From Deltaproteobacteria bacterium (GTDB lineage Bacteria; SAR324; NAC60-12), in the NCBI GenBank assembly GCA_038150265.1, contig JAYOTF010000007.1, positions 1-64,000 on the forward strand: a stretch of 64,000 nt of DNA, read 5' to 3'. How positions within the stretch are numbered: the stretch's first letter is position 1; each line of letters opens with the position of its first letter. A model generated the notes under the pieces. That model did not search any database, was not told the DNA's origin, and saw nothing but the letters and a program-made list of their open reading frames with translations. A program made the position numbers and the translations under genes. Below are positions 1 through 64,000 of the stretch, in pieces.

Positions 1-210
1 TCTCAGGATGGGGCCAAACGGTTGCTGGCAGTTTCCAATTCCGGGTGCCTTGGGTTCACCGGTGGGGATTGCGGAGTTTGGCTGCGGCGTAGACGGCCTT
101 GTGCTTGCTCCTTGAACGCCTCCCTCTGGGCAGGATGGCTCGTGCGGTCCAGGTTTCTGAAAGCTGGCTTCATCAGTGATGTCAACAAAATATGCCGAGG
201 CACCTACAGC

Positions 211-396
211 GTGTTTTTGAAATGGATTCTGGCCGCTGCGGTTGTTCTTACCGTCGCTCTGGTCGCAGTGCCTCTGTTTTTCGTCTGGATCGAGAAGAGT
301 CAGGCCAGAGAGAACACCCTGCGCCTAAAAGAGCCGCTACGGGAGCAGCAAGCGTCTGCTAAAGTGGCTGTTACTGTGTTTTCCCGCTCAGGTTAA
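211..396 (+). CDS. possible small membrane protein (hypothetical)
   Basis: 3' part of ORF 22..396 from GTG at 211 encodes a hydrophobic helix (WILAAAVVLTVALVAVPLFFVW) and a charged tail; start uncertain. Confidence 0.35.
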   Translation: MFLKWILAAAVVLTVALVAVPLFFVWIEKSQARENTLRLKEPLREQQASAKVAVTVFSRSG

Positions 397-512
397 AAGG
401 GAACCACCACAAAAAATTGACATTTTCAAGGAATTGCGAGAGAAGAGCGCGTGTTTGCCCTCCCCTGAGGGTTCAGAGGAGGCTGCTCTTGGAAACTCAA
501 CTTGGAGGTGTC

Positions 513-995
513 ATGGAAGCATTGAGCACAGATCGTCCACGGGAGTCAGAGAATTCCGCAGCATCCGGAACCCTTGCCTCCCTCCTGGAGCGCAAAGGCT
601 CCTACGTGGTGTCGGTGGATCCGGAATGCACTGTCAGTGAGGCAGTGAAGATCATGTGTCGGACCAAGGTTGGGGCCGTCATTGTGTTTGAACACCAGGC
701 GCCAGTGGGGCTCTTCACGGAGCGTGACGTGATGCACCGCGTGGTCGCGCTTGACTCGGATCCTGCACGGGTCCGGGTGAAGGAGGTGATGACGTCTCCG
801 TTTGCGTCTGGAACTCCGGAGCTGGACATCCTGGAGGCAGCGGAGATGATGAGCCAGAACCGCATCCGGCACCTGCCCGTTCTGCAGGGAGGTCAGCTGC
901 TGGGAATGATCTCTTCCGGAGACATCCTGGCGTGGAAGCTCCACAGCAACGAATCCATGATGCGGCACATGGAAGACTACTTCTTCCGGCACTAA
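513..995 (+). CDS. CBS-domain (tandem CBS pair) protein
   Basis: GGAGGT Shine-Dalgarno before ATG 513; motifs VGLFTERDV, VKEVMT, IRHLPV, GMISSGD. Confidence 0.9.
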   Translation: MEALSTDRPRESENSAASGTLASLLERKGSYVVSVDPECTVSEAVKIMCRTKVGAVIVFEHQAPVGLFTERDVMHRVVALDSDPARVRVKEVMTSPFASGTPELDILEAAEMMSQNRIRHLPVLQGGQLLGMISSGDILAWKLHSNESMMRHMEDYFFRH

Positions 996-1056
996 CCCCA
1001 CCCTCAGGTGCAGCCAGGCTGCACCCTTCCCCTCTTCTCTTATCCTTCCTTTAATT

Positions 1057-2214: not shown

Positions 2215-2223
2215 TGAGGCTCC

Positions 2224-4160: not shown

Positions 4161-4191
4161 GAATCGGGATGACGTTGGAGGTCGCAGGACG

Positions 4192-4211
4192 AGGGACCCC
4201 GGAGGGTCCCT
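4192..4211 (-). other. intercistronic stem-loop after the binding-protein gene
   Basis: minus strand AGGGACCC-TCCG-GGGTCCCT: 8-bp stem with a C(UCCG)G tetraloop; such hairpins often stabilise SBP mRNA. Confidence 0.55.
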
Positions 4212-4223
4212 GAGGAGGCCAGT

Positions 4224-5183: not shown

Positions 5184-5234
5184 CTTTCTCTCCTAAGCAA
5201 TTGTTGAGGGGGAAGGCCAGACCTTCCGTTTTTC

Positions 5235-6210: not shown

Positions 6211-8706
<2,496 letters not shown>

Positions 8707-12756: not shown

Positions 12757-14130
12757 ATGGAACGACTCGATCTCTTTCAGCATGAACAGGTGGAGCGTCA
12801 GCGTCGTGAAGCGCCGTTGGCCGACCGCATGCGCCCCCAGACCCTGGACGAATTCATTGGCCAGGAACACATCCTGGCACCCGGACGCCTGCTCCGTCGC
12901 GCGATTCAGGCGGATCAGCTCTCCAGCCTGATCTTTGCCGGTCCTCCAGGGACAGGAAAGACGACCCTCGCCCGGATCATTGCCAACACGACCAGGGCCG
13001 AGTTCCTGGCCCTCAATGCCGTCCTCTCCGGAGTGGCCGACATCCGGAAGGCCATTGAGACCGCCCAGCGCCTGAGCCAGGAACAGCAGCGCAAGACGAT
13101 CCTCTTTGTAGACGAGGTCCACCGCTTCAACAAGTCTCAGCAAGACGCCCTCTTGCCGCATGTGGAAAACGGGACGATCCTTTTCATTGGAGCCACGACC
13201 GAGAACCCGTACTTTGAGGTCAACAAGGCGCTGGTGAGCCGCTCGCGCATCTTCCTGCTGCGCTCCCTGGAAGCGGAGCATCTGGAGCGCATTCTCGAGC
13301 AGGCCCTGCAGGTTCCGGAACGAGGCTATGGAGGACGGCGCATCGACCTGCTCCCCGAGGCTCAGGAGCACCTGGCTCGCGTCGCGTCCGGAGATGCCCG
13401 TGCCGCCCTCAACGCGCTGGAGCTGGCGGTCCAGACCAGTGAGCCTGAACCAGACGGCACCCTCCGGATCACGTTGGCAATTGCCGAGGAGTCCATTCAG
13501 CAGCGTGCGGTGCTGTACGACCGTGACGGAGATGCCCACTTTGATACCGCCTCCGCCTTCATCAAGTCCTTGCGCGGCTCCGATCCTGATGCCGCCCTGT
13601 ACTGGATGGCGAAGATGGTCCAGGGCGGAGAGGATCCCCGGTTCCTGTTCAGGCGGATGCTCATCTTTGCCTGCGAAGACGTTGGCATGGCTGACCCGAA
13701 CGCCCTGGTGGTCACCAATGCCGCTGCCCAGGCGTACGATCAGGTGGGAATGCCTGAGGGCCGCTTTCACCTCGCTCATGCCTGCCTCTACCTGAGCACG
13801 GCGCCCAAGAGCAACACGGCCTTCGCGTTCTTTGATGCCCTCAAGCAGGTGGAGCAAGAGGCTCAGGACGAGGTTCCGGACCCCCTCAAGGACCCCAACC
13901 GCGACGCAAAGGGCCTGGGGCACGGACAGGGCTACCTGTACCCGCACGCGTACCGAGACCATTGGGTTGCTCAGCAGTACCTGCCTCAGGCGCTGCAGGG
14001 ACGCCTCTTCTATCAACCCAGCGACCAGGGGTATGAGGCACAGATCCGGGAGCAAGTGGAGCAACGCCGGCAACAGCAGATCAATGCCTTCCTTGCTCAG
14101 GAAGCCCTCGAACCGCCTTCTTCTTCCTGA
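12757..14130 (+). CDS. rarA: replication-associated recombination protein A (RarA/MgsA AAA+ ATPase)
   Basis: PLADRMRP, GPPGTGKTT, DEVHRFNKSQQD, GATTENP, SAFIKSLRGSD. Confidence 0.95.
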   Translation: MERLDLFQHEQVERQRREAPLADRMRPQTLDEFIGQEHILAPGRLLRRAIQADQLSSLIFAGPPGTGKTTLARIIANTTRAEFLALNAVLSGVADIRKAIETAQRLSQEQQRKTILFVDEVHRFNKSQQDALLPHVENGTILFIGATTENPYFEVNKALVSRSRIFLLRSLEAEHLERILEQALQVPERGYGGRRIDLLPEAQEHLARVASGDARAALNALELAVQTSEPEPDGTLRITLAIAEESIQQRAVLYDRDGDAHFDTASAFIKSLRGSDPDAALYWMAKMVQGGEDPRFLFRRMLIFACEDVGMADPNALVVTNAAAQAYDQVGMPEGRFHLAHACLYLSTAPKSNTAFAFFDALKQVEQEAQDEVPDPLKDPNRDAKGLGHGQGYLYPHAYRDHWVAQQYLPQALQGRLFYQPSDQGYEAQIREQVEQRRQQQINAFLAQEALEPPSSS

Positions 14131-14140
14131 AACCAACCGT

Positions 14141-14344
14141 ATGCCGCAAAAATTGTTTTTCTGGCTGGTGCTGACCGCCCTGTTCGCGTCAAGCTGTTCT
14201 CAAAAGCCCGTTATCTTCTACAAGCACGGAGACACCAACCAGTTTCGGGTCAAGGCGGTTGATGCCTGCTTTGGCGATTTCGACGTGGTCGAAAAGCAGC
14301 GCTTCGGTCCCTACGAGCGGGTGAAGCTGGACTGCCTCCGCTAA
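14141..14344 (+). CDS. small lipoprotein (67 aa, hypothetical)
   Basis: MPQKLFFWLVLTALFASSC lipobox-like signal; two further Cys. Confidence 0.65.
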   Translation: MPQKLFFWLVLTALFASSCSQKPVIFYKHGDTNQFRVKAVDACFGDFDVVEKQRFGPYERVKLDCLR

Positions 14345-14359
14345 CCCTGATGCATCCCT

Positions 14360-14527
14360 ATGGAACCCACGACCCCCTACAGCAAAGAATACCGCGATTA
14401 CATGGAATACGCCCTCCAGCGCTTCCTCATTGAGCACCACCAGTACAGCGAGTACGACGCCCGGATCAAGGTCATGCAGGACTTTGACGAGGTCGAGCAG
14501 CAGGCTCAAAATGAGGGCTACCTCTGA
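14360..14527 (+). CDS. small hypothetical protein (55 aa), not in the ORF track
   Basis: ATG..TGA reads MEPTTPYSKEYRDYMEYALQRFLIEHHQYSEYDARIKVMQDFDEVEQQAQNEGYL; strongly G/C-ending codons. Confidence 0.65.
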   Translation: MEPTTPYSKEYRDYMEYALQRFLIEHHQYSEYDARIKVMQDFDEVEQQAQNEGYL

Positions 14528-14530
14528 GTG

Positions 14531-14557
14531 TTAGCACTCCTTCCACCAAAGTGCTAT
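14531..14557. promoter_or_regulatory. CIRCE element 1 (HrcA operator)
   Basis: TTAGCACTC-N9-AAGTGCTAT versus consensus TTAGCACTC-N9-GAGTGCTAA. Confidence 0.85.
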
Positions 14558-14565
14558 TTTTCCTC

Positions 14566-14594
14566 TTGATTTCCCACACCGGTTTCGCTAGTTT
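14566..14594 (+). promoter_or_regulatory. putative sigma70 promoter of groESL
   Basis: TTGATT-17 bp-TAGTTT, between the two CIRCE elements. Confidence 0.6.
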
Positions 14595-14596
14595 GG

Positions 14597-14623
14597 TTAG
14601 CACTCATCCATGAGGAATGCTAT
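14597..14623. promoter_or_regulatory. CIRCE element 2 (HrcA operator)
   Basis: TTAGCACTC-N9-GAATGCTAT. Confidence 0.85.
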
Positions 14624-14701
14624 TAGCATTCTGGGTATGTTGCCTGCCCCGTTGGGGAGGGCGTGTTTTTCAATAACCGGTTGATCCTGAACAGGAGGAT
14701 T

Positions 14702-14986
14702 ATGCTCAAACCGTTGCAAGATCGTGTGCTCGTCAAGCGCATTGAGGCTGAAGAGAAAACTGCTGGTGGAATCATCATTCCCGATACGGCCAAAGAGAAG
14801 CCGCAAGAAGGGGAAGTGGTCGCCGTCGGCCCGGGCAAGCGCCTGGACAACGGCAGTGTCCAGGAAATGGGACTCAAGGCCGGAGACCGCATTTTGTTCA
14901 GCAAGTATGGTGGCACGGAAGTGAAGATGGACGGCCAGGAGTACCTCATCATGCGCGAGGATGACATCCTCGGCGTGGTCTCCTGA
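14702..14986 (+). CDS. groES: co-chaperonin GroES
   Basis: [34 protein letters not shown] before ATG 14702. Confidence 0.98.
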
Positions 14987-16669
<1,683 letters not shown>

Positions 16670-19126: not shown

Positions 19127-19697
19127 CTTGAGAGAGGAGGCGCAGGTGATGAGTGGCTTCGGCGCTCAGCAGCACAAAAGCCACAAAGACGGGCTCCCCA
19201 TCAGGGGCCTGGAAGTCCACCGGTTGCTCCGGGTAGCAGGTGGCCACCAGGGAATCCTTCAGGTTCAGGAGCCCCGGAAAGCGCGGATGCGGCACCGCCA
19301 CACCACTGCCGATGCCGGTGGTGGAGAGGGCCTCCCGCTCCAGCAGGTCGTGTGCAAGGTGATCCGGAAGCTTCAGCTCCTGCGTCAGGCGCTTGCCAAT
19401 GTCTTCGAGAAAGGCCTCTTTGCTCGCGGAGGCAAGGTGGGTGTGAACCCCACCCAGGCGCAACGCCCGGATGAGGTCGGTCTCCGTCCGCTGAATCTGC
19501 GCCGACTCTTCAATGTAGAGGTGCTTGGACTTGGCCCAGGCGATCAGGGTTTCCTTGCGGAAGAGGTATTCCCCGTTCCGCAGGGTGCAGGGGATTTCGC
19601 CGAGGCGAATCCATCGTTGGAGGGTCGGTTCCGGAATCCGGAGGAGTTGCACTACATCGGCAACCTTGAGCTGCTGAACCGTGCTCTGAAATGCCAC
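19017..19697 (-). CDS. PTS EIIA (Ntr/fructose-type) protein with N-terminal excisionase-like HTH
   Basis: VADVVQLLRIPEPTLQRW HTH; REALSTTGIGSGVAVPHPR phospho-His motif; HLRLLS. Confidence 0.88.
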   Translation of the reverse strand: MAFQSTVQQLKVADVVQLLRIPEPTLQRWIRLGEIPCTLRNGEYLFRKETLIAWAKSKHLYIEESAQIQRTETDLIRALRLGGVHTHLASASKEAFLEDIGKRLTQELKLPDHLAHDLLEREALSTTGIGSGVAVPHPRFPGLLNLKDSLVATCYPEQPVDFQAPDGEPVFVAFVLLSAEATHHLRLLSQVAHLVRDDNLASSLRQPYSSEQLLDHFQSILAEKAR

Positions 19698-19782: not shown

Positions 19783-21126
19783 TTAACCGGAGAGGGCAAA
19801 TCCTTCGACAAGCAGGGCCGGAATGTACAGGTGCGAGAGGTTGGGCTGGTACTGGTTTCCGGTGCCCTGGATCTGCTTGAGGACGTCAAAGAAGTTCCCG
19901 GCAATGGTGATGCTGTCCACAGGTTGAACCCGCTGGCCGTTGCGCATCAGAAAGCCCTGCACGCCAATGGAGATGTCGCCACTGACGGGGTTGCAGCCTG
20001 CCGCCCCTTCCAGCTGGGTCACGAGCAGGCACTCCTCGGGGACGGCACAGAGGTCTTCCAGCGAGGCCGCGCCTGTGGGCCAGACGAGGTTGTGCATCTT
20101 GGTGGAGATGCCTCCGGAGTAACTGCGGCCGGCATGCCCGGTCGAGCTGCGTTGGTCGCGGAGTCCGGATTCGACGTGGTAGAGGAAGTTTTGGAAGATG
20201 CCGTTTTCAATGAGTGGCATCGGCTGCGTGAGGACGCCTTCGGCATCCACGAAGCGCGAGCGTGAGCCTCCGGGACGATGGGGGTCGTCCAGGAGCGTGA
20301 GCGACGAGTCGGCAATCGCGTCTCCCAGGCGTCCCTTGAGGCGAGACATCCCCCGCTGAGCCGATTCAGCCGAGAAGGCGCCAAAGTACATTCCGAGCAG
20401 CCGAGGCGCGGTGTACTCGTCCAGCACCACCGGGAGCTTTCCGCTGGGAAGGGGCTTGGCGTCAATCAGCTCCACTGCTTTTGCAACCGCCGTTTCAGCC
20501 GTCTGCCGGGCGGCTTCCGGCTTCCAGACGCGGTCGCTCCAGAAGTGCATTCCGGACTTGCGCCGGTCGTCTTCCTGCAGCAGGGCGCCGCAGTAGGCGC
20601 TGACGCTGTTGCCCCGCTGGTGGTAGTGCAGGCCCCGGGTGTTGACCAGCACCACCTCCCCGCTGCCTCGGGAGGCTCCCAGGTACGGGAGGCTGGTGAC
20701 GCGGGCGTCTTTCGCTTGGGCAGCGGCTTCCATTTCGAGCCCGAACTCCGTCAGCTCCTTGGCGGTCAGGGCCTCCAGCTCCGGAGCGTACAGGCCCAGC
20801 GCCTCGGCGTCCGGAAGCGTCTTGGGGGCGTCCGGAAGAAAGACCCCGGTTTCGTCCTGCAGCAGGGCATTCTCGCAGGCGTTCTCAAAGGCACGGGTGA
20901 TGGCGGCTTCATCCAGCCGTTCGGTGGAAGCGGTTCCGGAGCGTCCGTCCCGGATGACGCGGATGCCGAGTCCCAGGTTGGTGGACTGCTCAATCTTCTC
21001 GGCACGTCCGTTGCGGATTTCCACATCAAGGGACTCTTCGCGTTCAACGAGGGCATCGACCTCCCGGAAGCCTCCTTGTTCGGCAAGGCGTAAAACGTAG
21101 GCTGCCGCCTGTTCCGGAGTGAGCAT
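19783..21126 (-). CDS. pmbA: TldE/PmbA family protein
   Basis: SRFVDAEGV, STGHAGR, NPVSGDIS, ITIAGN; coupled to tldD. Confidence 0.9.
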   Translation of the reverse strand: MLTPEQAAAYVLRLAEQGGFREVDALVEREESLDVEIRNGRAEKIEQSTNLGLGIRVIRDGRSGTASTERLDEAAITRAFENACENALLQDETGVFLPDAPKTLPDAEALGLYAPELEALTAKELTEFGLEMEAAAQAKDARVTSLPYLGASRGSGEVVLVNTRGLHYHQRGNSVSAYCGALLQEDDRRKSGMHFWSDRVWKPEAARQTAETAVAKAVELIDAKPLPSGKLPVVLDEYTAPRLLGMYFGAFSAESAQRGMSRLKGRLGDAIADSSLTLLDDPHRPGGSRSRFVDAEGVLTQPMPLIENGIFQNFLYHVESGLRDQRSSTGHAGRSYSGGISTKMHNLVWPTGAASLEDLCAVPEECLLVTQLEGAAGCNPVSGDISIGVQGFLMRNGQRVQPVDSITIAGNFFDVLKQIQGTGNQYQPNLSHLYIPALLVEGFALSG

Positions 21127-37065: not shown

Positions 37066-39039
37066 TCAGAACGCTGAGGAGGCGGCCTCTTTCAGCAGGG
37101 TGTCATAGGCTTGTGGTGTCAGGGCTTCCCAGCTTTCTGCAACCACCTGGAAGCGGCTCTCGGCACGGCGGAGGATCAGGGTCTTGATCCCGAGGTCAGA
37201 GAGGCGTTCTGATTGATAATCCTGAAGGAGCCGGACCCGAATGTCTTCTCCCGAAAACTCGATCTGGAGTGGGGTCAGCTGAATCTGACGAGCGCCATTT
37301 TGCTCGGCCACCCGTTGCTTCAGGTCGGCCCAGGCGGCCAGGTCGTATGACTCGCTCTGGAAGTCAGAGGCATACACCTGCAAGTAGGCCTGCAGGTTGT
37401 CTCCTTCCCAGAGGTCTCGCCAGTGACTCACAAAGGCCAGGACGGACTGCAGGGGGTCGCCGGAAGTGATCACCGGGGCCGGTGTGGGCTCCGTCGTGGC
37501 CACGGCGGGAGCAACCGGTGCTGCTGGTGCCAGGGCTGGAGCTTCCGGAGCCGTGACGTGGTTCACTTCCGGAGCTTCCGGAGCCGGGGTCGCTTCGCTG
37601 GTGTCGAGCCAGGCGATGGCCTCCGGAGGGGTGCGGTCCTGATCAACAGCGGCAATGAGTTCCGTATTCGGGGCCGCCGGGTCGGCATCGGCTTCGGTGA
37701 CCCAGGCGACGGCCTCGGTTTCAGAGCCATCCAGGTCCACTGGGCGGGCCGCTGGGGGAACGGGTTCTGCGTCGGTTGCAACCAGCCAGGCTGCTCCGGT
37801 TGCTGAAGGCGCGTCCAGCTCCACGGGTTCCGGAGCGCTAATGAGGGTTTGGCGCAACTCGTCCAGCCCTTCCGGGTTTTGTAACGTCAGGGGCTCTTCG
37901 GCAGAAGTTTCCGGCTCTTCCGGAAGCGTGGGCTCTGAAGACGAGTTCGGCTCTTCCGGAAGGTTTGGCGAGAAGGACAAGGCGGCCAGAAGGGGGTCGT
38001 TTTCCGGAGTCGCCTTCACGATGCTGCCGGCGACCGGAGTGCCATTGAGGACAATGGGGAAGCTCTGCTGCTCCATTGCCAGGCGGTCGGAGGCGTTGAG
38101 CTTGCCCCACTGCTCGCTGATGATTTCATACCCCCGGGCTCCCTTGCGGAGGTACAGGGTTTTCAATCCGGAAGTCTGCAGGTGCGGGGCATCGTAGTCC
38201 TGGAAGAGTCGAACCTCCGTGACCTCTCCGGAGCGGAGGATGCTGAGAACCTGGATGCTGATGCGCTTTTCCCGGTAGAGGTCGTTGACGTTCTGCTTGT
38301 ACTGCTTCCAGCGGGACGCGTTGAATTTTTGAGTCCGGAAGTCTGTGGCATAAAGCGACAGGTAGACCGGGTTGTCGCTGGTTTCCCAAGACGTGATCCA
38401 GGTTTGCAGAAACTCCAGAACCTGCTGGCGCTCCTGGAGCACCTTCCAGGGGCTTTCCAGCTGCAGCTTTTTGCTGATGATCATGGGCGTGTTGCGGAGC
38501 GACACCAGCTGCTTGACCTCAAGCAATTCGTCATTGCGGAGCGAGATGCACCCCCGGGTGGCCACGGGTTCCACCGATTCGGTGCCGTGCAGCCAGATCC
38601 CGGAACCCGTCTTGCGGTGATAGTAGCGGTCCAGGAAGTTCGGGTAGTTCGTCACCAGCGCTCCGGAGCCATAAACGGAGGCAATCTCCTCTCCATAGCG
38701 CTGGTCCAGCAGGGAGCTGCTCAGCTTCTGCCGGAAGCGGTAGATGCCCTCTGGCGTCTTCTGGTCTCCTTCGACCTGTTTGTCACCGTCAACCTTCCCA
38801 GACTCACACGAGTGGAGGGAGTTGAGGCGCCAGTGGCCGTTCAGTTGGTAGACGTAGAGGGTGCATCCGGATTTGTCCACCGCGATCACGGTGTCTCCCT
38901 CGACGCCATAGTAGAGGAGGCCTGCAGGGATTTTTTCAGCAGCCGCTACTGGAAGAGCCAGAAGTCCCCAGTATCCAGTGAGGAGCAATCCGAGAGCGAC
39001 CAGCAGGCGAGAAAGGGAGGTCGTCAGTGGGGGCGTCAC
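37066..39039 (-). CDS. L,D-transpeptidase/carboxypeptidase (YkuD) with two NTF2-like domains (Csd6-like)
   Basis: signal/TM segment; GDQKTPEGIY, GIWLHG...TRGCI catalytic motif; two W..SWE..YL..Y..DF...F/LQDY...G.KTL repeats; GTG 39039 overlaps the csoR stop. Confidence 0.8.
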   Translation of the reverse strand: MTPPLTTSLSRLLVALGLLLTGYWGLLALPVAAAEKIPAGLLYYGVEGDTVIAVDKSGCTLYVYQLNGHWRLNSLHSCESGKVDGDKQVEGDQKTPEGIYRFRQKLSSSLLDQRYGEEIASVYGSGALVTNYPNFLDRYYHRKTGSGIWLHGTESVEPVATRGCISLRNDELLEVKQLVSLRNTPMIISKKLQLESPWKVLQERQQVLEFLQTWITSWETSDNPVYLSLYATDFRTQKFNASRWKQYKQNVNDLYREKRISIQVLSILRSGEVTEVRLFQDYDAPHLQTSGLKTLYLRKGARGYEIISEQWGKLNASDRLAMEQQSFPIVLNGTPVAGSIVKATPENDPLLAALSFSPNLPEEPNSSSEPTLPEEPETSAEEPLTLQNPEGLDELRQTLISAPEPVELDAPSATGAAWLVATDAEPVPPAARPVDLDGSETEAVAWVTEADADPAAPNTELIAAVDQDRTPPEAIAWLDTSEATPAPEAPEVNHVTAPEAPALAPAAPVAPAVATTEPTPAPVITSGDPLQSVLAFVSHWRDLWEGDNLQAYLQVYASDFQSESYDLAAWADLKQRVAEQNGARQIQLTPLQIEFSGEDIRVRLLQDYQSERLSDLGIKTLILRRAESRFQVVAESWEALTPQAYDTLLKEAASSAF

Positions 39040-47900: not shown

Positions 47901-48689
47901 ATGGACTACACCACCCTTAGCCTCAATCAGCGTCCGCACGGCGTGTGGGAGGTCACCCTCAGCCGCCCGGAGGCCCACAATGCCATGAGCATCCGGATGA
48001 TCCGGGAACTCCGGAACCTCTGGGACCAACTGAGGGCCGATCCGGAGGTCCGGGTGGTGGTGCTGGCTGGCGCAGGAAAGAGCTTCTGTGCGGGGGCTGA
48101 CCTGCGGTGGATGCAGGAGATTGCTCAGCAGCCCCGGGAGCAACGCCTGGCAGAGGCCCGGGAGCTGGCGGAGATGCTCCAGGCGCTTGATACCCTTCCG
48201 GCCCTGACGGTGGCCCGAGTGCACGGAGCCGCGTATGGAGGAGCGGTGGGCCTGATCGCTTGCTGCGACCTGGCTTTGGCCTCTGAAGCCGCAGGATTCG
48301 CGTTGACCGAAGTGAAGCTGGGGCTGTTGCCTGCGACGATTTCACCGTTTGTGATCAGACGTCTGGGCGGCTCCCAGGCACGGCGGGTGATGCTGCACGC
48401 CAAGCGCTTTGATGCCGCGGAAGCCCGGCACCTGGGCCTGATCAGCCGGGTGACCTCGGTGGAGGAGCTGGACTTGGCCGTGGAGGAAGAGCTGCGCTGG
48501 GCGCTGGCCTGCTCGCCACACGCGGTGCAAACGACCAAGGCGCTCATCCGCGAAGTCGAGGGACAGCGTCCGGAAGCTGCCCGCGAGCTGACCATTGGGC
48601 AACTCGCAGAGGTCTGGGAGCATCCAGATGCACAAGAAGGAATGACGGCTTTTTTTGAGAAGCGGTCTCCCACCTGGAAACCGGCATGA
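47901..48689 (+). CDS. enoyl-CoA hydratase/isomerase (methylglutaconyl-CoA hydratase-like)
   Basis: SFCAGADL, AYGGAVGL, LTEVKLGLLPATISPFV. Confidence 0.88.
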   Translation: MDYTTLSLNQRPHGVWEVTLSRPEAHNAMSIRMIRELRNLWDQLRADPEVRVVVLAGAGKSFCAGADLRWMQEIAQQPREQRLAEARELAEMLQALDTLPALTVARVHGAAYGGAVGLIACCDLALASEAAGFALTEVKLGLLPATISPFVIRRLGGSQARRVMLHAKRFDAAEARHLGLISRVTSVEELDLAVEEELRWALACSPHAVQTTKALIREVEGQRPEAARELTIGQLAEVWEHPDAQEGMTAFFEKRSPTWKPA

Positions 48690-49303
48690 ATTTCCGGCAC
48701 CTTTGCTGCATGTTGCCCCAATTTGTCCGACGATTGGGTCTGATTGGAGGGCTGTTTCTGATGCTGCCCTCGTTGGGGCAGGCGCAGACGCTTTCCGAGA
48801 TGGTGGAAGACGTCCTCCCGCAATGGGGACGGCAGCACCAGGAGTTTTATGCGGGGGCTGCGTGGCTGGTGGTCAGCACTCCGCACTTCAATGCCTTCCG
48901 GGAAGCGGGGCAGTCGAACCTCATGGCCTTTGCCGAGTGGTGGCCGGACGAAACGTGGGGGCTCCGGGGGTTTGGGGCTCAGCAACGGTACCGCCGCTTT
49001 GGAGAAGCCGGGGAAGACGTGACCCTTCGGCACCTTGGAGTGATTGGAAAGGGCTGGGTGGTGCTGTCGGACAACTGGCAGGCTTCTGCCGGAGCCGGTT
49101 TTGCCAACACCCGCCTGGAAGCACCGAGCGGCGACAAACGAGCGCTGACTCTGGTCACCGAGTTTCTGCTGACGGTTCAGGTCGCAGAGGCTCTCACTTT
49201 GGAACTGGGAACGTTGACCATGGATGGAGCCAGTGGAGAAGGCTCAACGGATCAACGCCTGGGTTCCACCAACTATGTAGCTGGGCTCAGTGTAGGGTTT
49301 TAG
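48686..49303 (+). CDS. putative 8-stranded outer-membrane beta-barrel protein
   Basis: signal peptide (GQA|Q), alternating beta strands, C-terminal Phe (YVAGLSVGF). Confidence 0.6.
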   Translation: MNFRHLCCMLPQFVRRLGLIGGLFLMLPSLGQAQTLSEMVEDVLPQWGRQHQEFYAGAAWLVVSTPHFNAFREAGQSNLMAFAEWWPDETWGLRGFGAQQRYRRFGEAGEDVTLRHLGVIGKGWVVLSDNWQASAGAGFANTRLEAPSGDKRALTLVTEFLLTVQVAEALTLELGTLTMDGASGEGSTDQRLGSTNYVAGLSVGF

Positions 49304-49342
49304 GTCCCTGGCCCGAGAACGAATTTTGATGCAGCGAGGATA

Positions 49343-50869
49343 ATGCAACTGCCCAACGTAGAACTTCTGACCAACGAGGACAAGATCTGGTTCGCCCGCT
49401 CCATCGCGGGAATGGTGGTCGCAGACGGCCATGTGGATGACAGTGAACTGGAGTCCTTGAAAGAGGCGATCAGCTTCCTGGATGACCGAGAGGAAGTGAA
49501 CCGGTTGATGGCCATTGTGAAGTCGGGCAAGCCCCCCAAGCTGGAGGCGGCACACATTGAGTCGAAGCAGGCCTTCATCATCCTCAAGTACCTTGCTGAA
49601 GTGATGGTGGCAGATGCCGTCCTTTCGCCGTCGGAGGTCGATTACTTCCTCACGGTTGGAAAGCTCCTTGGCTTCACCCCCAACATCCTGAACAAGCTGT
49701 GGCGCACCGCTCGGAGTTCCCTGGAAGCGGCGAAGCCGAAGGGAATGATTGACGCGGGCAAGAGCGGAAAAATTGAGGTGGCACTCCTGACGCTCAATGA
49801 GGAGCAGTGCGCGTTCCGGTTCCCCCGTCCGCTGATGCCCAACTCCCGGCTGATTTTGCAGGTCACCAAGAGCGATGGCAACCTGTACAACCCGGTGCAG
49901 ATGCGGCTGGAGAAGCAGTCTGCAGACCGGCATGACGAAGGGTCGTATCAGGTGGTGGCCAAGATTGAGCAGCGCGTTGCCGAGGGCAACGGCATCCTGG
50001 AGCACCTCTATCCCGACCGCTTCATGCCGGCGGAAGACACGCGCCTCTCTCCAAGCAAGTCGTCTCTGACGGGGCGTCTGGTGCGCTGTCCGGTGTGCCT
50101 GACCAACAAGATCCCGTTCTACATCCTCCGCTCCCGGAGCATGATCACCAAGCAGAACATCTTTGGCATTGGCAAGTACGTCAAGCCTGCCGGCCAGCTC
50201 GACTTCTGCAACTTCCACCTGCTGGAGGTCAGCTCCTGCCCAACCTGCGCCTTTTCCTCCAACACCATTGAGCACTTCCAGCGGACCACGCACGAGGAGC
50301 CCGTGTTTGATGTGGAAGCCTTCAAGGAAGGGTGGGACGAGGCGGCGGCGGACCTGCTCAAGAAGCTTCAGGCGCAAACGGAGAACTACGCGACTGAAGA
50401 GCGAAACGTGCAAGAGGCGCTGCTTTCGTATGACCTTGGCATGAAAACCTTCCGGCACCTTGCCTCCAAGGCGAAGGATGAGCGCGACGGCCTCGTGTAC
50501 CTGCGAAAGGTGGTGTCGTACCTGATGATTCAGGCGGAACTCCTCATGGAGGAAGGGCAGAAGGAAAAAGCGGTGGCCAACCTCAAGGAGGTGATCAGCA
50601 CCCTGGAGCCCCTCTTTGAGCAGATGGAAGCAGAGGTGATCCTGCGCTCCGCGACACTCTTGTTCCAAATCATGGTCTACCTGAAGGATTACCAAAAGGC
50701 AGGCATGTACATGAAGTTCATCGACAACTACAACACGGAAGGCAAGCTGGATCCTGCCGGAGACGAGTACAAGACCCTTCAGATCTGTGCCGCCACAATC
50801 AAGCGGACCTATGATGATCGGGAGATGCTCGCCTTTGACCAGCTGGCTTCTTTCCACGTGGAAGGCTAA
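49343..50869 (+). CDS. TerB-like / PilZ-like / DUF2225 zinc-ribbon multidomain protein
   Basis: two TerB-type motifs (VADGHVDDSE, VADAVLSPSE), a beta-rich middle domain, CPVC...CPTC, helical TPR-like C-terminus. Confidence 0.7.
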   Translation: MQLPNVELLTNEDKIWFARSIAGMVVADGHVDDSELESLKEAISFLDDREEVNRLMAIVKSGKPPKLEAAHIESKQAFIILKYLAEVMVADAVLSPSEVDYFLTVGKLLGFTPNILNKLWRTARSSLEAAKPKGMIDAGKSGKIEVALLTLNEEQCAFRFPRPLMPNSRLILQVTKSDGNLYNPVQMRLEKQSADRHDEGSYQVVAKIEQRVAEGNGILEHLYPDRFMPAEDTRLSPSKSSLTGRLVRCPVCLTNKIPFYILRSRSMITKQNIFGIGKYVKPAGQLDFCNFHLLEVSSCPTCAFSSNTIEHFQRTTHEEPVFDVEAFKEGWDEAAADLLKKLQAQTENYATEERNVQEALLSYDLGMKTFRHLASKAKDERDGLVYLRKVVSYLMIQAELLMEEGQKEKAVANLKEVISTLEPLFEQMEAEVILRSATLLFQIMVYLKDYQKAGMYMKFIDNYNTEGKLDPAGDEYKTLQICAATIKRTYDDREMLAFDQLASFHVEG

Positions 50870-50878
50870 CGAGGAATC

Positions 50879-52450
50879 ATGGCTGAAGCTCCTGCAGAGG
50901 GAACCAAGGAAGAACGTCCCCGAAACGGCAAAATCTTTGTCATGCTTCCGGAACTGCTGATGAAGCGGTTGATGGGGCCCTTGCGCCAGAGCCTGCTGGC
51001 CCTCAATGTTGCCTTTGAGATTGGCAACGAGGAGACTCCTGCAGAGAAGCTTGCCAACTTTCAGTGGATCATCCGGTTTCCATGGACGATTCCTCCAGGC
51101 AAGCTGCAGGACGACAAAGCCGGGCTGTTCCTGTACCGGGCTGCCGGGATGGTCAAGATTCAGGAAAACAAGCTTCCACCGCAACGCAACGAACACCTGA
51201 CCCAGATTCTGGAACGCTTCAAGGTGGTGCAGGAGGGGGTGCAGACGCGAGAGGAGCGTCCGGAGTTCCTCAAGCTGTCAGTGGCAGACTTCAACCTGCG
51301 AGACCGCCAGCAGGAGTCCCGGCAGCTCCGGGCCCGCGTCACAGACCTCAACCGGGTGGTCGAGGAGGTGGAGAGCGCCTACTACTATGGGATCAGCTAC
51401 CTCTTCAATACGGCCATTGCACAGGTGACCGGAGTCGCGGTGCTGCAGGGCATCATGAAGGGGCTGGTCCGCCTGATGATCATTGACAACCTGGGCAACC
51501 GGACCATTGATGGCCTCGTCAAGCTGGGCTTCAGCAAGAAGTTCCTGACGACCATGTCCACGGCCCAACTTGCGGAAAAGTACCAGGAGTTCAAGAAGAC
51601 CGACGAGGGTCAGAAGTACAATGCCCAGGAATTCCTCTTCCAGAGCGAGGAGTTCAAGAATGTGGACATCGTCTTCTTCAACAACTGGGACTTCAGCGAA
51701 GACAACTTCACGGTCCGGGTGGGGTTGCGGAAGAAAACTGTCCTCAGCAAAAAAGAGGAGCAGAAGAAGCGGCAGGAGAAGTTTCTGGAAGACCGCATGA
51801 GCGAGGCCAAGGGACAGCTTGCCGAGCAGCAGGCGAAGCTCAAGCCCCTCATGGAAGAGATTGAGGTCATTGAGGTCAACAACATGCAGGAGAAGGAGAA
51901 GCGGTACCAGATCCTGCTCAAGCAACGCAAGCGCCTACTGGGGCAGATTCACCGCAGTGAGGCCCGCCTCAAGGAGCTGGAGCGTCCGGTGAATGCCTCT
52001 GACCAGCAACTGCTGCTGACCTTTGACCTGTTTGAGAGCTTCCGGAGCCGCCAGAGCTTCCGCGACAAGCTGGGAGATGCCTTTACCGGACTCGGATTTG
52101 GAGACCTCTGGCAGAAAAGCGTGGGAGTGGATGCCGCCAAGAGCTTTCACAACCTGTTCAAGATGGCCCAGTGTGCCAAGGACTTGATCCAGGTGGAGCA
52201 GCGGGTACAGAAGCTTGAAACCTCGTGGAAGCAACTGGAGGAGCAACTGGCTCGGTTCTCCATGCACCATGGCCTGGTGAAGAAGCGCAAAGGCGCTCGT
52301 CCGGGAGAGCCCGAGAGCTATCAGCCCCTGCTGGAGGAGCACATTCTGGAAAAGCTGGAAATGGCGATTTTGAGCTGCGAGGTCGTCAATAGCTTCCAGC
52401 GCCTCCGAGAAGAGGCCAAGGCCCAGAATGACACCCTGGAGCTGGAGTGA
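50879..52450 (+). CDS. hypothetical coiled-coil protein (523 aa)
   Basis: GAGG SD, 9 bp after the upstream stop; long K/E/Q-rich heptad stretches. Confidence 0.75.
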   Translation: MAEAPAEGTKEERPRNGKIFVMLPELLMKRLMGPLRQSLLALNVAFEIGNEETPAEKLANFQWIIRFPWTIPPGKLQDDKAGLFLYRAAGMVKIQENKLPPQRNEHLTQILERFKVVQEGVQTREERPEFLKLSVADFNLRDRQQESRQLRARVTDLNRVVEEVESAYYYGISYLFNTAIAQVTGVAVLQGIMKGLVRLMIIDNLGNRTIDGLVKLGFSKKFLTTMSTAQLAEKYQEFKKTDEGQKYNAQEFLFQSEEFKNVDIVFFNNWDFSEDNFTVRVGLRKKTVLSKKEEQKKRQEKFLEDRMSEAKGQLAEQQAKLKPLMEEIEVIEVNNMQEKEKRYQILLKQRKRLLGQIHRSEARLKELERPVNASDQQLLLTFDLFESFRSRQSFRDKLGDAFTGLGFGDLWQKSVGVDAAKSFHNLFKMAQCAKDLIQVEQRVQKLETSWKQLEEQLARFSMHHGLVKKRKGARPGEPESYQPLLEEHILEKLEMAILSCEVVNSFQRLREEAKAQNDTLELE

Positions 52451-55997: not shown

Positions 55998-56690
55998 CTA
56001 CGCCGCCTCGGCTTCCACCAGCTTGCCGGCTTCCACTCGTAGAATGGTCTCTGCCAGCGACAGGATCTCGGTGCTGTGGGTGGCAATGAGCATTGTGGTC
56101 CCGAATTCCTCTGCCAGCTCCCTCAGCAACTCCAGCACTTCCTCTCCCGTTCGGCCATCCAGGTTTCCCGTGGGCTCATCGGCCAGCAGCAAGGCCGGCT
56201 GATGAATCAGCGCCCGGGCAATCGCCACCCGTTGCTGCTCTCCGCCGGAAAGCCGATCCGGAAAGCTCTGGCCCCGTGTGCCCAAACCGAGCCGCTTGAG
56301 CAGGTCCTGAGCCTGGTGGCCCTTGCGGATGCCGTTTAGCTCCAGAGGCAGCTCCAGGTTTTCTGCCACCGTCAGGGTGGGAATCAGGTTGAAGGACTGG
56401 AAGACGAAACCGAGGCGCTTGCGCCGGAACAGCGTCCGCTCCCGTTCGCTGAGGTGATTCAGGCAGAGGTCGTCCACCCACACCTCTCCGGAGTCCGGAA
56501 GGTCGATGCCGGCAATGAGGTTGAGGAGGGTGGACTTTCCGGAGCCGCTCTTTCCCAACAGGGCGCAGGTGCTGCCTCGGCGCAGGCTGAGGTCGACCCC
56601 ATCGAGCACCTGGTGCATGACGGAGCCTTCGTGGTAGGCCTTGCGGAGCTGACGGAGTTGAAGAAACGCAGAGGGCGCAGGAGCGTTCAT
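55998..56690 (-). CDS. ABC transporter ATP-binding protein (LolD/MacB-type)
   Basis: [34 protein letters not shown]; no permease adjacent. Confidence 0.92.
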
Positions 56691-59248: not shown

Positions 59249-59284
59249 TCCTTTTGTTCTTTTCTTTCAAGCGGTTGGTCCTTC

Positions 59285-60787: not shown

Positions 60788-60913
60788 TCGAATGCCTGCA
60801 ACAAGTGGGATCAGTCTTGAATAACACCTGGTAACACTGGCAGAATCCTAACAGATCAACTGGGTAGCGCCAAGCTTTTCATCGGAACCGAACAGGTCCG
60901 AAAACTCCTTATC

Positions 60914-62671
60914 ATGACGGGGCGGTTCATGACTTCCTATCACCCTGCAGTTGAGCACCTTCAGGAATCCGGACACATCTCGGTGGCCCAGTTGAAGCCA
61001 CTGCACGAGCAACTGGTCGCCTACCGGCAGCGTCCGGATGCCCTCAAGGAGGTGCTGCTCAAGCACAAGGTCGTCTCGGAAGAAGACTTCCAGCAGGCGC
61101 TGGCCTCCTACTACAACCTCGAATTCCGGGCCTCGCTGGAAGACGTGCCCATTGACCCGGAGCTCTCCCGGCGCATCCCCATCCGCTACGCCAAGCGATT
61201 CAACTGCATGCCCATGCGTCAGCAGAACGAGGTGCTTGAGGTGGTGACCGATGATCCGCGACGCCTGGAGGCCCTGGAGGAGCTTTCCCGAGAGTTCGGG
61301 TGTGCCGTTCAGCCGGTGCTGGCCGCTCGGCAGGTGGTGCTGGACTTCATCAACCGCTCCTATGATCAGGCGACGGGATTCAGCGAAGAGGCCGTGGGGG
61401 ACCTGGATGCCGAGGAGCGCATTGAAGGCATCTCCGGACTGGAGGAGCCGGAAGACCTGCTGGATGCAACGGATGAGGAGCCCGTCAAGCGCCTCGTCAA
61501 CTCGCTCCTCTGGCAGGCCGTCCGAGATGGTGTCAGTGACGTCCACGTGGACCCGACCCCGAAGGAAACCCAGATCCGCTACCGCATTGATGGGGTCTTG
61601 CACGCTGTGACGGTGGTGCCTCGCGCGGCACACATCACCGTGGTGAACCGGATCAAGGTCATGTCCCGGCTCGATATTGCGCAAAAGGGCATTCCTCAAG
61701 ACGGGCAGACGATGATCGTCATTGCCGGAAAGAAGATCGACATCCGGGTTTCCACCGTGCCAACGGTGTATGGCGAGAAGGTGGTGATGCGTCTGCTGCA
61801 ACGCAGTGAGAAGCTCCTGAGCCTTCCGGAACTCGGCATGTCGAAGCGTCTGCTGGAGCCCTACCGGAAGATGGTCCACGCCAGCGGCGGCATTGTCCTG
61901 GTCACGGGGCCCACCGGAAGCGGTAAGACGACCACGCTCTACGCGTCCCTTTCGGAAATCGACCACACTGCCCGCAACGTCATTACCATTGAGGAGCCGG
62001 TGGAGTACAAGATGCCGGGGTACAGCCAGATTGAGGTCAACCCCCGGATCGGCCTCTCCTTTGCGAGTGCGCTCCGCTCCGTACTCCGGCAGGATCCGGA
62101 TGTGGTGATGGTTGGCGAGATGCGCGACACGGAAACCGCGCAGATTGCCATTCAGGCCGCCCTGACGGGGCACCTGGTCTTCAGCACGGTTCACACCAAT
62201 AACGCGCCAGCGACGATCACCCGACTCATTGACATGGGCATTGAGCCCTTCCTCGTCTCGTCCACCATCATCGGTGTGCTCGCTCAGCGCCTGGTCCGGC
62301 GCATCTGTCCCGATTGCAAGGAGGCCTACGAGCCGCATCCGGAGCAACTGCGCGAGTTGCGCATTCCCCCCAAGGTGCTGGAGAAGTCCGGAGGCGTCCT
62401 CTACCGTGGCAAGGGCTGTGACGCCTGCCGCCAGACGGGGTACCGGGGCCGCATCGGCATCCATGAGCTGCTGCCGATGACTGAGACGGTCAAGCAGGTC
62501 ATCCTCAACACCAACGACTCCAACAGCATCCGGCGCCAGGCCATCAAGGAAAACATGATCACCCTCCGACGCGACGGCATCTACAAGGTCCTCCTGGGGG
62601 TCACCACCGCAGAAGAAGTGCTCGCCATCACCACTGAAGAGGCAGCGGTTTCGCTCCCTGAACCTTCCTGA
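60914..62671 (+). CDS. gspE: type II secretion/type IV pilus assembly ATPase (GspE/PilB)
   Basis: GPTGSGKTT, LRQDPDVVMVGEMRD, TGHLVFSTVHTN, CPDC...CDAC zinc motif. Confidence 0.92.
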   Translation: MTGRFMTSYHPAVEHLQESGHISVAQLKPLHEQLVAYRQRPDALKEVLLKHKVVSEEDFQQALASYYNLEFRASLEDVPIDPELSRRIPIRYAKRFNCMPMRQQNEVLEVVTDDPRRLEALEELSREFGCAVQPVLAARQVVLDFINRSYDQATGFSEEAVGDLDAEERIEGISGLEEPEDLLDATDEEPVKRLVNSLLWQAVRDGVSDVHVDPTPKETQIRYRIDGVLHAVTVVPRAAHITVVNRIKVMSRLDIAQKGIPQDGQTMIVIAGKKIDIRVSTVPTVYGEKVVMRLLQRSEKLLSLPELGMSKRLLEPYRKMVHASGGIVLVTGPTGSGKTTTLYASLSEIDHTARNVITIEEPVEYKMPGYSQIEVNPRIGLSFASALRSVLRQDPDVVMVGEMRDTETAQIAIQAALTGHLVFSTVHTNNAPATITRLIDMGIEPFLVSSTIIGVLAQRLVRRICPDCKEAYEPHPEQLRELRIPPKVLEKSGGVLYRGKGCDACRQTGYRGRIGIHELLPMTETVKQVILNTNDSNSIRRQAIKENMITLRRDGIYKVLLGVTTAEEVLAITTEEAAVSLPEPS

Positions 62672-62684
62672 TTACTCGCCCGAC

Positions 62685-64000
62685 GTGCCCCATCACCTTG
62701 TCATTGGAACCAGTGGTCACATCGACCATGGCAAAACCACCCTCGTCAAAGCCCTCACCGGGGTGGATGCCGACCGCTTTGAAGAAGAGAAACGCCGGGG
62801 CATCACCATCGACCTGGGTTTTGCGCACACCACCGATGCCCACGGCAACACGCTGGCGCTGGTGGACGTGCCCGGACACGAGCGGTTTGTCCACAACATG
62901 CTGGCGGGAGTGTCGGGACTCGATGCCGTGATGCTGGTGGTGGCTGCCGATGAAGGCGTGATGCCGCAAACCCGCGAACACCTGGCCATTTGTGACCTCC
63001 TTGGCGTGAAGCAGGGGGTGATCGTCCTCACCCGGATGGACCGCCTGGATGACCCGGAACTGGCAGAGCTGTGTGCCGAAGAAGTTCGGGAGCTGGCGCA
63101 GGGGACCTTTCTGGAGGAAGCCCCGGTGCTGTCGGTGTCTTCCGTGACAGGTGAGGGCATTCCCGAGCTGCGGGAAGCCTTGCTGCAGCTGAACCCCCGG
63201 GCCCTGGCCGAAGCGCAGGAGCGTCCGTTCCGGCTCGCGGTGGACCGCTCCTTTTCCGTGAAGGGATTTGGCACCGTGGTGACCGGCACCGTCTGGTCCG
63301 GACAGGCTCGGCTGGAAGAAACGCTGGTGCAGTACCCGCAGGGAAATCGGGTCCGGATCCGAGGGCTGCAGTCGCATGGCGCTCAGCAGCAGCAGGTCGT
63401 GGCTGGGCAGCGGGCGGCGATCAATCTGGGAGGCGTGCACCACGAGGCCATTCACCGAGGAGACCAGCTGGCGCCTCCGGAATCGCTGCTGACGAGCTTC
63501 ATGCTGAACGTTGAGCTGCGGTTGCTTGCCGAGGCTCCGGCGGCCTTGGAGCAGCGCCAGCGGGTTCGGGTGCACCTGGGCACTCAGGAATTGCTGGGTC
63601 GGCTCATTTTGCTGGAAGGCGACACGCTGCTTCCGGGGGCCACTCGCCTGTGCCAGCTCCGTTTGGAGCAGCCCACCAGCACACGGTTTGGAGACCGCTT
63701 CATCATCCGGAGCTACTCCCCCAGCTACACCCTGGGTGGGGGACAGGTGCTGGATCCGGCGCCCGTGAAGTCCCGGCGGGTGATGCACGAGCTGGCGCAG
63801 CGCCTGCGCGTGCTGCAGGGTCCGGATGAAGCTGGGCGTGTGGAAGAAACAGTGTACCTGCAGGCCCTCCGGGGCGTCCGTCAGGAAGAGCTGGCAGTGC
63901 GATCCGGACTCTCGGGGAAGCGGGCCGAGAAGGTGCTGCAGACCCTGCAGAGCAAGCAACGGGTCCTCTGTCTGGATGCCCATGAACGCCGGTGGTGGCA
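62685..64000 (+). CDS. selB: selenocysteine-specific elongation factor SelB (runs off the window end; not in the ORF track)
   Basis: GTG 62685 reads [62 protein letters not shown]. Confidence 0.95.

Follow-up and report, generated by a model that had tools for sequence, protein, structure and literature searches.

The palindrome TCCGGA is repeated throughout a 64-kb stretch of DNA from a SAR324 bacterium (contig JAYOTF010000007.1, positions 1 to 64,000, or G000:C7:1-64000; the whole of this stretch is here called the window) and throughout the genome to which the stretch belongs, in all reading frames and in non-coding DNA, and its copies stand in register with the turns of the double helix. 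We propose, with a probability of roughly 45%, that TCCGGA, and more weakly CCCGGA/TCCGGG, is the word of an abundant, two-fold-symmetric DNA-binding protein that reads YCCGGR in helical register.

TCCGGA is over-represented in the window and is the top hexamer of the genome

The window contains 168 copies of TCCGGA (2.6 per kb), vs 24.68 ± 4.76 in dinucleotide-preserving shuffles (maximum, 38; 0/100 shuffles reached 168). A first-pass annotation had described the word as a signature resembling the highly iterated palindrome HIP1 of cyanobacteria. The 18 starts that it listed by hand in the first 6.3 kb and the 11 copies that it placed at 37544-38339 were all recovered by computed matching, as was its single copy in groEL, at 16603; its composition-based expectation of about 1 site per 3 kb agrees with the window GC of 0.59 to 0.64. 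The features concerned are as follows.

1..64000, no strand: 168 dispersed TCCGGA sites, a subset of the 9,711 sites of the genome
564..6223, no strand: 18 TCCGGA sites of the earlier hand count, all starts in the match list
37544..38339, minus strand: cluster of 11 TCCGGA sites inside a 753-amino-acid gene, 37066-39327(-)
15026..16669, plus strand: groEL (Cpn60_TCP1 match, 1.2e-74), with one TCCGGA site at 16603-16608

Across the genome (G000; 3.39 Mb in 87 contigs, the largest 214 kb; 97.8% complete; GC 61.2%) there are 9,711 sites (2.86 per kb). TCCGGA ranks first among all hexamers (observed/expected ratio [O/E] of 8.69, expectation by composition), ahead of TTCCGG/CCGGAA (O/E 4.88), and it is also first in two relatives, G002 and G013, as expected of a highly iterated palindrome. 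The spread is near-Poisson, with a mean of 14.45 sites per 5 kb and a variance of 16.4 (minimum 3, maximum 33; 632 windows of 5 kb). The label "HIP1-like" therefore fits: TCCGGA is a genome-wide, lineage-specific palindrome signature outside cyanobacteria. Restriction-site avoidance would leave the word under-represented, whereas it is 8.7-fold over-represented here, and such avoidance as was observed was confined to other lineages. As a separate observation, palindromes containing CTAG or TA are very strongly avoided genome-wide in G000 (O/E 0.03 to 0.06), with 12 ACTAGT, 15 CATATG, 38 CCTAGG, and 27 TCTAGA sites in 3.4 Mb.

The excess is independent of coding

Genes were called with our own heuristic (2,697 genes, 87% of G000), and "non-coding" DNA thus includes some missed genes. 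By these calls, TCCGGA occurred in reading frames 0, 1, and 2 at 2041, 2377, and 4240 sites, respectively, and at 1053 non-coding sites (2.43 per kb vs 2.92 per kb in coding DNA), confirming the earlier claim that sites fall in different frames and in intergenic DNA. When synonymous codons were shuffled within genes, the O/E was 3.9, 3.2, and 5.2 by frame (total, 4.16); when codon order was shuffled, it was 6.8. For 16 comparator hexamers, these tests gave 0.36 to 2.22. In intergenic gaps of every size class, including 30 to 100 and 100 to 200 bp, the O/E was 7.1 to 9.9; given the heuristic gene calls, the excess in short gaps is the robust form of the non-coding result. Site density dips at the start codon only.

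Under Markov models of orders 1 to 4, the O/E fell stepwise (7.57, 3.95, 2.39, and 1.22). The first-pass annotation had reasoned that the signal would be spurious if it disappeared after correction for CCGG or 5-mer content and codon usage, or if it were confined to one frame. Formally, the 5-mer correction does remove nearly all of the excess; however, the order-4 model is built from the enriched words themselves, and a ratio of 1.22 is no proof of an artefact, because the model already holds the overlapping 5-mers TCCGG and CCGGA. These are the most enriched 5-mers of the genome (3.12-fold; CCGG merely 1.37-fold), and the order-4 result shows instead that the two half-sites contribute almost multiplicatively. 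The tests on coding came out the other way altogether, the excess being present in every frame after both kinds of shuffle.

An origin of the excess in codon usage, amino-acid composition, or CCGG content is thus an explanation to which we give next to no chance and which we count as already refuted. It can point to the maximal-order O/E of just 1.22 and to frame 2 (xxT CCG GAx), which holds about half of the coding sites. Against it, the excess persists in each frame under both kinds of shuffle and is equal in short intergenic gaps, CCGG is barely enriched, and phasing holds across frames and among non-coding sites, as described below.

TCCGGA is not part of a longer repeat element, since flank information does not exceed 0.08 bits per position. 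The Y-TCCGGA-R flank bias reported earlier is real but weak: at position -1, T and C had frequencies of 0.32 and 0.30 (Kullback-Leibler divergence, 0.076 bits), with C at 0.39 at position -2 and G at 0.41 at position -3. Maximal-order O/E values of 7-mers and 8-mers were 0.89 to 1.14, and the conserved flanks beyond a core that characterize repetitive extragenic palindromic elements or miniature inverted-repeat transposable elements were not found.

TCCGGA fills four in ten permitted places and shifts codon and dipeptide usage

A protein sequence permits TCCGGA at Ser-Gly; at Phe, Leu, Ile, or Val followed by Arg and a codon beginning with A; and at an NNT-capable residue followed by Pro and Asp or Glu. 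Of 20,958 such amino-acid-compatible places in G000, 8,616 carry the word (41.1%), which bears out the suggestion that TCCGGA is placed wherever protein constraint allows. Codon choice differed accordingly: Pro was CCG in 78% of full-site contexts vs 37% elsewhere, Arg was CGG in 69% vs 33%, and Gly was GGA in 69% after TCC (full-site context) vs 24%.

The annotation had also attributed many PE and SG dipeptides to TCCGGA. In the G000 proteome, PE heads all 400 dipeptides in over-representation (O/E 1.65), SG is sixth (1.41), and PD stands at 1.35, vs 0.81 for the reversed EP. In samples of two enriched relatives, the PE O/E was 1.68 (G002) and 1.75 (G013), compared with 0.85 to 1.25 in four non-enriched or depleted genomes (small samples of 26 to 28 thousand residues each). 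Both the PE and SG excess and the comparison of PE among relatives support the attribution, making TCCGGA a case of a DNA-level word that measurably reshapes protein sequence.

Sites are phased with the DNA helix

The histogram of distances between TCCGGA sites in G000 has peaks at 9, 18 to 20, 30 to 31, 41 to 42, 51 to 52, 61 to 63, 72, and 93 bp, and pairs are depleted at 11 to 17 bp (3 to 12 per distance vs about 28 expected). The spectrum of pair distances has a power of 25.4 at 10.5 bp, beside a 3-bp codon peak of 29.0; for 18 control words, the 10.5-bp power was at most 5.7. The phasing comes from codon choice, not protein sequence. Pairs of amino-acid-compatible places were barely periodic (power, 2.4), whereas the ratio of used to expected pairs was periodic at 10.5 bp (power, 25.5) without a 3-bp component. 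Permuting the used same-frame places within genes gave a power of 3.99 ± 1.53 (maximum, 9.87) vs 20.0 observed, a value reached in 0/300 permutations, and the same within-gene permutation predicted 131.5 ± 9.6 pairs at 11 to 17 bp, where 38 were observed.

The amplitude of the phasing is similar across classes of site pairs, coding or non-coding:

Non-coding/non-coding pairs: mean cosine 0.100, z 3.1
Coding/non-coding pairs: mean cosine 0.119, z 2.8
Pairs in the same gene and same frame: mean cosine 0.133, z 8.4
Pairs in the same gene but different frames: mean cosine 0.100, z 7.5
Pairs in different genes: mean cosine 0.113, z 2.2

In the window alone, 87 pairs at 6 to 210 bp gave a mean cosine of 0.146 (z 1.9), which agrees with the genome-wide 0.112 (z 12.1). 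By successive 105-bp distance bins, the power was 20.5, 7.1, 5.0, 3.5, and 7.9 to 530 bp, and mostly noise beyond; the signal is clear to about 320 bp and possibly extends to about 530 bp. No 10.5-bp AT/GC or AA/TT pattern was detected around the sites (amplitude 0.0015, as among control words); it is therefore the TCCGGA sites themselves that are in register, without a general curvature code. Hairpin avoidance was considered as a cause of the spacing and rejected: it predicts a monotonic recovery with distance, whereas the observed oscillation continues beyond 300 bp. A 10.5-bp register restricts the possible mechanisms to those in which one face of double-stranded DNA is read.

The motif tolerates change at its outer positions only

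Among XCCGGY words in G000, the one with T and A flanks accounted for 19,422 counts, the next word for 8,006, and ACCGGT for 1,490. Two palindromes with the same core are under-represented (composition O/E of 0.67 for ACCGGT and 0.68 for GCCGGC vs 8.7 for TCCGGA). CCCGGA is the most enriched word at one substitution from TCCGGA (O/E 2.26), and of the nine such variants, CCCGGA/TCCGGG alone was phased with TCCGGA (power, 14.9; all others, at most 2.5), with a relative amplitude of 0.075 vs 0.178 for TCCGGA with itself. The variants that were not co-phased included the frequent decay products TCCAGA/TCTGGA (power at most 2.5). About 8% of the TCCGGA sites of G000 read CCCGGA or TCCGGG in G002, and decay of former sites seems too small to explain the co-phasing, for which about 40% of CCCGGA words would need to be former sites. 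The functional motif would accordingly be YCCGGR, with T and A strongly preferred at its ends.

These results also bear on the idea that the word acts through DNA mechanics, as a flexible or A-philic hinge repeated in phase that shapes supercoiled DNA without any reader. A 10.5-bp register coherent over hundreds of base pairs is consistent with such hinges, as are weak flanks with the information held in a compact core. The extreme specificity among words that are mechanically nearly alike (8.7-fold for TCCGGA vs 0.67- and 0.68-fold for ACCGGT and GCCGGC) argues otherwise, as do the lack of AA/TT or weak/strong-base periodicity around sites and the existence of a sister genus (G014) without the trait, and we regard a purely mechanical origin as very improbable.

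Sites turn over quickly, and the trait is patchy within the phylum

Turnover was followed between G000 and G002, of the same genus, over 348 kb of collinear DNA (amino-acid identity, 89%; 0.528 of four-fold degenerate sites identical). The word was unchanged in G002 at 427 (46.7%) of the 914 coding sites of G000 that were aligned. Even so, retention by frame (0.47, 0.66, and 0.53) compares with 0.30, 0.38, and 0.24 expected from the same codons outside such contexts, so that sites are retained 1.6 to 2.2 times above the codon-level expectation; conservation beyond neutral, as in highly iterated palindromes, is thus found although just 427/914 sites are kept. Differences between the two genomes hit all six positions of the site, transversions included. 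Species-specific sites are in phase with conserved ones (0.12, z 2.7, and 0.11, z 2.2). TCCGGA is, in short, a set of many weakly favoured, interchangeable sites and not of fixed operators.

In a survey of 88 genomes of the phylum, TCCGGA was counted against the reversed word AGGCCT; the relatives are akin to one another, and the counts are not independent. An excess of at least 3-fold was found in 26/45 genomes of the window's family, genera g1, g11 (15/18), g12, g6, g4 (2/3 genomes), and g3 among them, and in 9/19 genomes of family f7 (by the reversed-word ratio only), vs 0/19 in the sister family f2. Nine genomes of genus g2 have a ratio of about 1. The trait is therefore common to many genera of the phylum and absent or reversed in others. 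In the enriched relatives checked against composition, the excess was confirmed and the phasing recurs: G013, of another genus (400 kb, GC 57%), ranks TCCGGA first (O/E 8.0) with a period of 10.4 bp (power, 8.5), and G002 has an O/E of 7.3 with a period of 10.6 bp (power, 6.9). In the non-enriched genus represented by G014, the O/E is 0.85. Because genomes with and without the trait occur in one family, the gene behind it could be sought by phylogenetic profiling.

Other genomes of the survey depart from this pattern in ways of their own. G066 (1.6 Mb, 35% GC, another family of the class) was rejected as an enriched genome, its high ratio reflecting missing AGGCCT, which makes the reversed word an imperfect control; its top hexamer is GCCGGC (33 sites per 100 kb vs 3 expected, 10.8-fold), perhaps an "alternate" iterated palindrome. 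In G083 and G084, CCGG is nearly absent (O/E 0.07 to 0.15), a general depletion not specific to TCCGGA, and GGCC is in excess. G087 has 0 TCCGGA sites vs 22.7 expected, among many avoided palindromes, and also lacks CTCGAG, GTCGAC, GTATAC, and CTGCAG. A full-length C5 methylase is present in 5/6 TCCGGA-depleted genomes; no recognizable Kpn2I-like partner lies beside the C5 methylases of the TCCGGA-poor G081 and G085 to G087 in the neighbourhoods inspected.

The methylase and uptake genes found do not follow the trait

In the manner proposed for HIP1, an orphan methyltransferase could mark TCCGGA and repair could convert near-sites, the word accumulating without selection on its function. We consider this origin unlikely, although several observations agree with it: the HIP1-like presence in all frames and non-coding DNA, the rank of outer-position variants as the commonest (CCCGGA, 2.26), a conserved methylase with an SPPY motif, and the same top hexamer in unrelated phage genomes, as expected of a host process. 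The same outer-position bias is reported for HIP1 by Elhai (PMC4390886).

In G000, the profiles PF00145 (C5 methylase), PF03852 (Vsr), PF02384 (type I/IIG methylase), and PF07669 (Eco57I-type methylase) were all without a hit, whereas control genomes did give matches for the C5 methylase and Vsr profiles. Among the family's 26 enriched genomes, 19 likewise had no PF00145 match, 4 had fragments only, and 3 had full-length genes. No hit came from PF07832 or PF09015, which model two CCGG-family restriction enzymes related to but distinct from Kpn2I; because the control genomes gave none either, this result is uninformative. PF02086 matched in G000 only the protein encoded on contig C51, and PF01555 matched two genes, on C45 and C51.

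The C45 methylase (258 amino acids, SPPY motif, N4/N6-type) immediately follows the gene of a retron-type reverse transcriptase (RVT_1, 1.1e-19). In this locus (G000:C45:1404-5096, outside the window), the stop codon of the reverse transcriptase overlaps the methylase start, and a 311-amino-acid open reading frame (ORF) without a Pfam match follows. As a driver of the trait, it was rejected, with an ortholog found in G001 only (71% identity). In the C51 gene (G000:C51:248-1384, outside the window), motif I precedes motif IV (DPFMGGGT ... SPPYPG). Its protein carries an Arg/Asp/Glu-rich N-terminal extension of variable length, is conserved across the order, and matched no curated family above the cut-off; its best PDB matches were short segments of N4-cytosine methyltransferases. 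It too was rejected as a marker of the trait, being present in 22/31 relatives irrespective of enrichment, with no enrichment-linked segment in the alignment of the 22 orthologs. Motif IV is intact in 12/12 non-enriched orthologs and degenerate in several enriched ones (APPA, RPPL, HPPL, and NPPM); the degenerate forms were found in genera g3, g4, and g6.

The cognate methyltransferase and Vsr-like repair suggested by the first-pass annotation are therefore not supported: PF00145 and PF03852 had no match in G000, where very-short-patch repair would call for both, and the two PF01555-type methylases do not track the trait. Among the profiles searched, no methyltransferase specific for the palindrome co-occurs with it; a methylase of an unrecognised family is possible. 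The presumed deamination products are not depleted (TCTGGA, O/E 1.51; TTCGGA, 1.00; order-1 model), and the changes at all six positions between G000 and G002, including transversions, do not fit a single T:G to C:G correction. Nor does biased repair predict 10.5-bp phasing or exclusion at 11 to 17 bp.

Alternatively, competence machinery that prefers TCCGGA-bearing fragments could spread the word by self-transformation, as a molecular drive resembling that of DNA uptake sequences. G000 has ComEC, its sites are spread uniformly and nearly at random with no 5-kb window below 3 sites, and such a role was recently proposed for HIP1 (PMC13756078). However, ComEC is found in 35/35 high-quality genomes of the phylum, enriched or not, and so does not separate the two and tells neither for nor against uptake; a 6-bp palindrome discriminates self poorly, foreign DNA having about 1 site per 3 kb; out-of-phase exclusion and helical register are not predicted; and no receptor candidate is known. 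We judge a drive of this kind quite improbable.

A proposed dimeric reader protein and the evidence against it

Enrichment, phasing, motif tolerance, turnover, and distribution among clades are observed, and coding does not account for the enrichment; from these we infer a protein as the reader, its dimeric form, and selection rather than biased repair as the agent that places the sites. The case for a reader protein rests on the compact palindrome, the near-additive half-sites, the tolerance of the outer pyrimidine, the same-face preference, the half-turn exclusion, the equal strength in coding and non-coding DNA, and the rapid turnover with modestly raised conservation, none of which would be expected from translation or from biased repair or uptake. 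In the proposed dimer, each TCC/GGA half-site would be contacted by its own subunit. Copies bound on the same face of the helix, at centre-to-centre distances of n × 10.5 bp, would favour one another, and those on opposite faces at short range (11 to 17 bp) would hinder one another. Weak selection across the genome, wherever a synonymous or non-coding change allows a site, would account for the filling of about 4 in 10 permitted places and for a register that holds for a few hundred base pairs while single sites turn over fast; it might even raise the PE and SG content of proteins.

Several points weigh against this proposal. TCCGGA is the top hexamer of three viral records, found when viral contigs were scanned for two nearby TTCCGGAA words:

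G089, 110 kb, complete: GC 66.8%, 364 TCCGGA sites, evenly spread, O/E 9.6
G091, 38 kb: GC 42.8%, 60 TCCGGA sites, O/E 9.1
G090, 13 kb: GC 45.7%, 55 TCCGGA sites, O/E 20.8

A host process that acts on whatever DNA is resident would explain this enrichment at least as easily. No 10.5-bp phasing was detected in G089 (264 pairs, z 0.29), at low power, with a z of about 2.5 expected at the host amplitude. Between G000 and G002, in-phase sites are not better kept than out-of-phase ones (0.429 vs 0.399), with isolated sites kept somewhat better (0.496), and the extra conservation of sites is modest and would fit a directional repair bias too. Finally, the reader protein is hypothetical, none having been identified. 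It is because of this, and of the enrichment shared by phage genomes, that we hold the proposal below a majority probability.

The phage proteins yielded no candidate reader, G089 and G090/G091 having no protein in common; no convincing link from these records to G000 was found, and the only blastn match to a collection of named phages was one of 240 bp, to a Gordonia phage. In a fourth viral record, G088 (249 kb), TCCGGA is concentrated in a locally repetitive stretch at about 74 to 76 kb. The signature could help in binning and in assigning phages to hosts.

A wider claim, that TCCGGA is a new bacterial chromatin code in which a chromosome-wide protein lattice reads the word in register about every 350 bp without a methyltransferase, is one we put forward tentatively and would sooner doubt than assert. 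If true, it would be a chromatin code common to many genera, biasing codons at 41% of permitted places and making PE the top dipeptide.

Sites and genes of the window

The local density of TCCGGA is set by amino-acid opportunity, as the contrast between adjacent PmbA-like and TldD-like metallopeptidase genes (19783-22514, minus strand) indicates, with 8 sites in 13 places in one and 1 site in 6 places in the other. The cluster of 11 lies in a gene (37066-39327, minus strand) for an L,D-transpeptidase (YkuD) with Cds6_C domains, which has 27 potential places, 13 of them used; 8 of its sites are of the form xxT-CCG-GAx in a PE-rich linker (LPEEP, APEAPEAPE). The scarcity in groEL follows from its sequence, which has only 3 amino-acid-compatible places, 1 of them used. 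Relatives of this groEL among the genome contigs searched reached at most 73% identity. The closest pairs and longest gaps are the following.

19630..19642, no strand: two TCCGGA sites 7 bp apart, the closest spacing in the window (match list)
56487-56499, no strand: second TCCGGA pair with 7-bp spacing (match list)
13881-16602, no strand: longest TCCGGA-free gap in the window, spanning groES-groEL
48575..50946, no strand: second longest TCCGGA-free gap, 2,378 bp, with ORFs of 205 and 508 amino acids that have no Pfam match

In the last of these, the 508-amino-acid ORF uses 0/6 potential places; the stretch may be recently acquired DNA, or its ORFs may have been called on the wrong strand. An Rfam search of the window gave no match.

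Comparison with known systems

For thirty years, highly iterated palindromes have resisted explanation, and nearly all work on them has concerned cyanobacteria; TCCGGA is a second, independent one, in an abundant uncultured marine phylum. A full-text literature search, for which most subscription journals were out of reach, found no description of TCCGGA hyper-abundance or of a helically phased dispersed palindrome, and the literature on highly iterated palindromes was all cyanobacterial by title or abstract among the matches listed.

HIP1 (GCGATCGC) and TCCGGA are alike as short, GC-rich, hyper-abundant palindromes found in all frames and in non-coding DNA, and HIP1 is likewise lineage-specific, lost in some sublineages, and conserved somewhat beyond neutral (PMC4390886, PMC5861425). 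The conservation of HIP1 and a periodicity at 10 to 90 kb are reported by Xu et al. 2018 (PMC5861425), whereas the register of TCCGGA is 10.5 bp; a 10.5-bp register set by codon choice is not reported in the parts seen of the HIP1 papers examined. The role in DNA uptake noted above was proposed for HIP1 by Rodriguez-Cruz et al. 2026 (PMC13756078). Elhai 2015 (PMC4390886) describes an alternate palindrome, rCCGGy, as the dominant over-represented 6-mer of Oscillatoria PCC 10802, with a methyltransferase specific for each alternate palindrome; neither TCCGGA nor "periodic" occurs in that paper. By that account, rCCGGy shares with TCCGGA its CCGG core and its dominance among 6-mers; it differs in its flanks (R..Y vs T..A or Y..R) and in its specific methyltransferase, of which we found no counterpart. 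TCCGGA also differs from HIP1 in size and degree (a hexamer with an O/E of about 9, in another phylum, vs an octamer with an O/E of 15 to 300) and in having no cognate methyltransferase that tracks the trait.

In Escherichia coli, Dcm/Vsr very-short-patch repair and the excess of CCWGG are an example of a repair bias that enriches a short palindrome and its half-sites. That system needs a C5 methylase and Vsr, neither of which was found in G000, and predicts a depletion of T-containing precursors that is not seen here. DNA uptake sequences (DUS of Neisseria and USS of Pasteurellaceae) are 9 to 12 bp long and non-palindromic. Like TCCGGA, they reach a density of roughly 1 per kb or higher, evenly spread and within genes in tolerant frames, and they may accumulate by drive and not by function; no phasing between their copies is known. 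TCCGGA is itself recognised by restriction-modification systems of the Kpn2I/BspEI type. Restriction targets are normally avoided, as in G087, whereas TCCGGA is maximised in G000. Closer to the reader proposed here, SeqA acts on pairs of GATC sites and requires that they share a helical face. To our knowledge, neither the SeqA word nor that of EbfC/YbaB is present in 8-fold genomic excess or reshapes codon or dipeptide usage. EbfC/YbaB, an abundant nucleoid protein that reads a very short palindrome (GTnAC; PMC2665219), does so much as we propose for the reader of TCCGGA.

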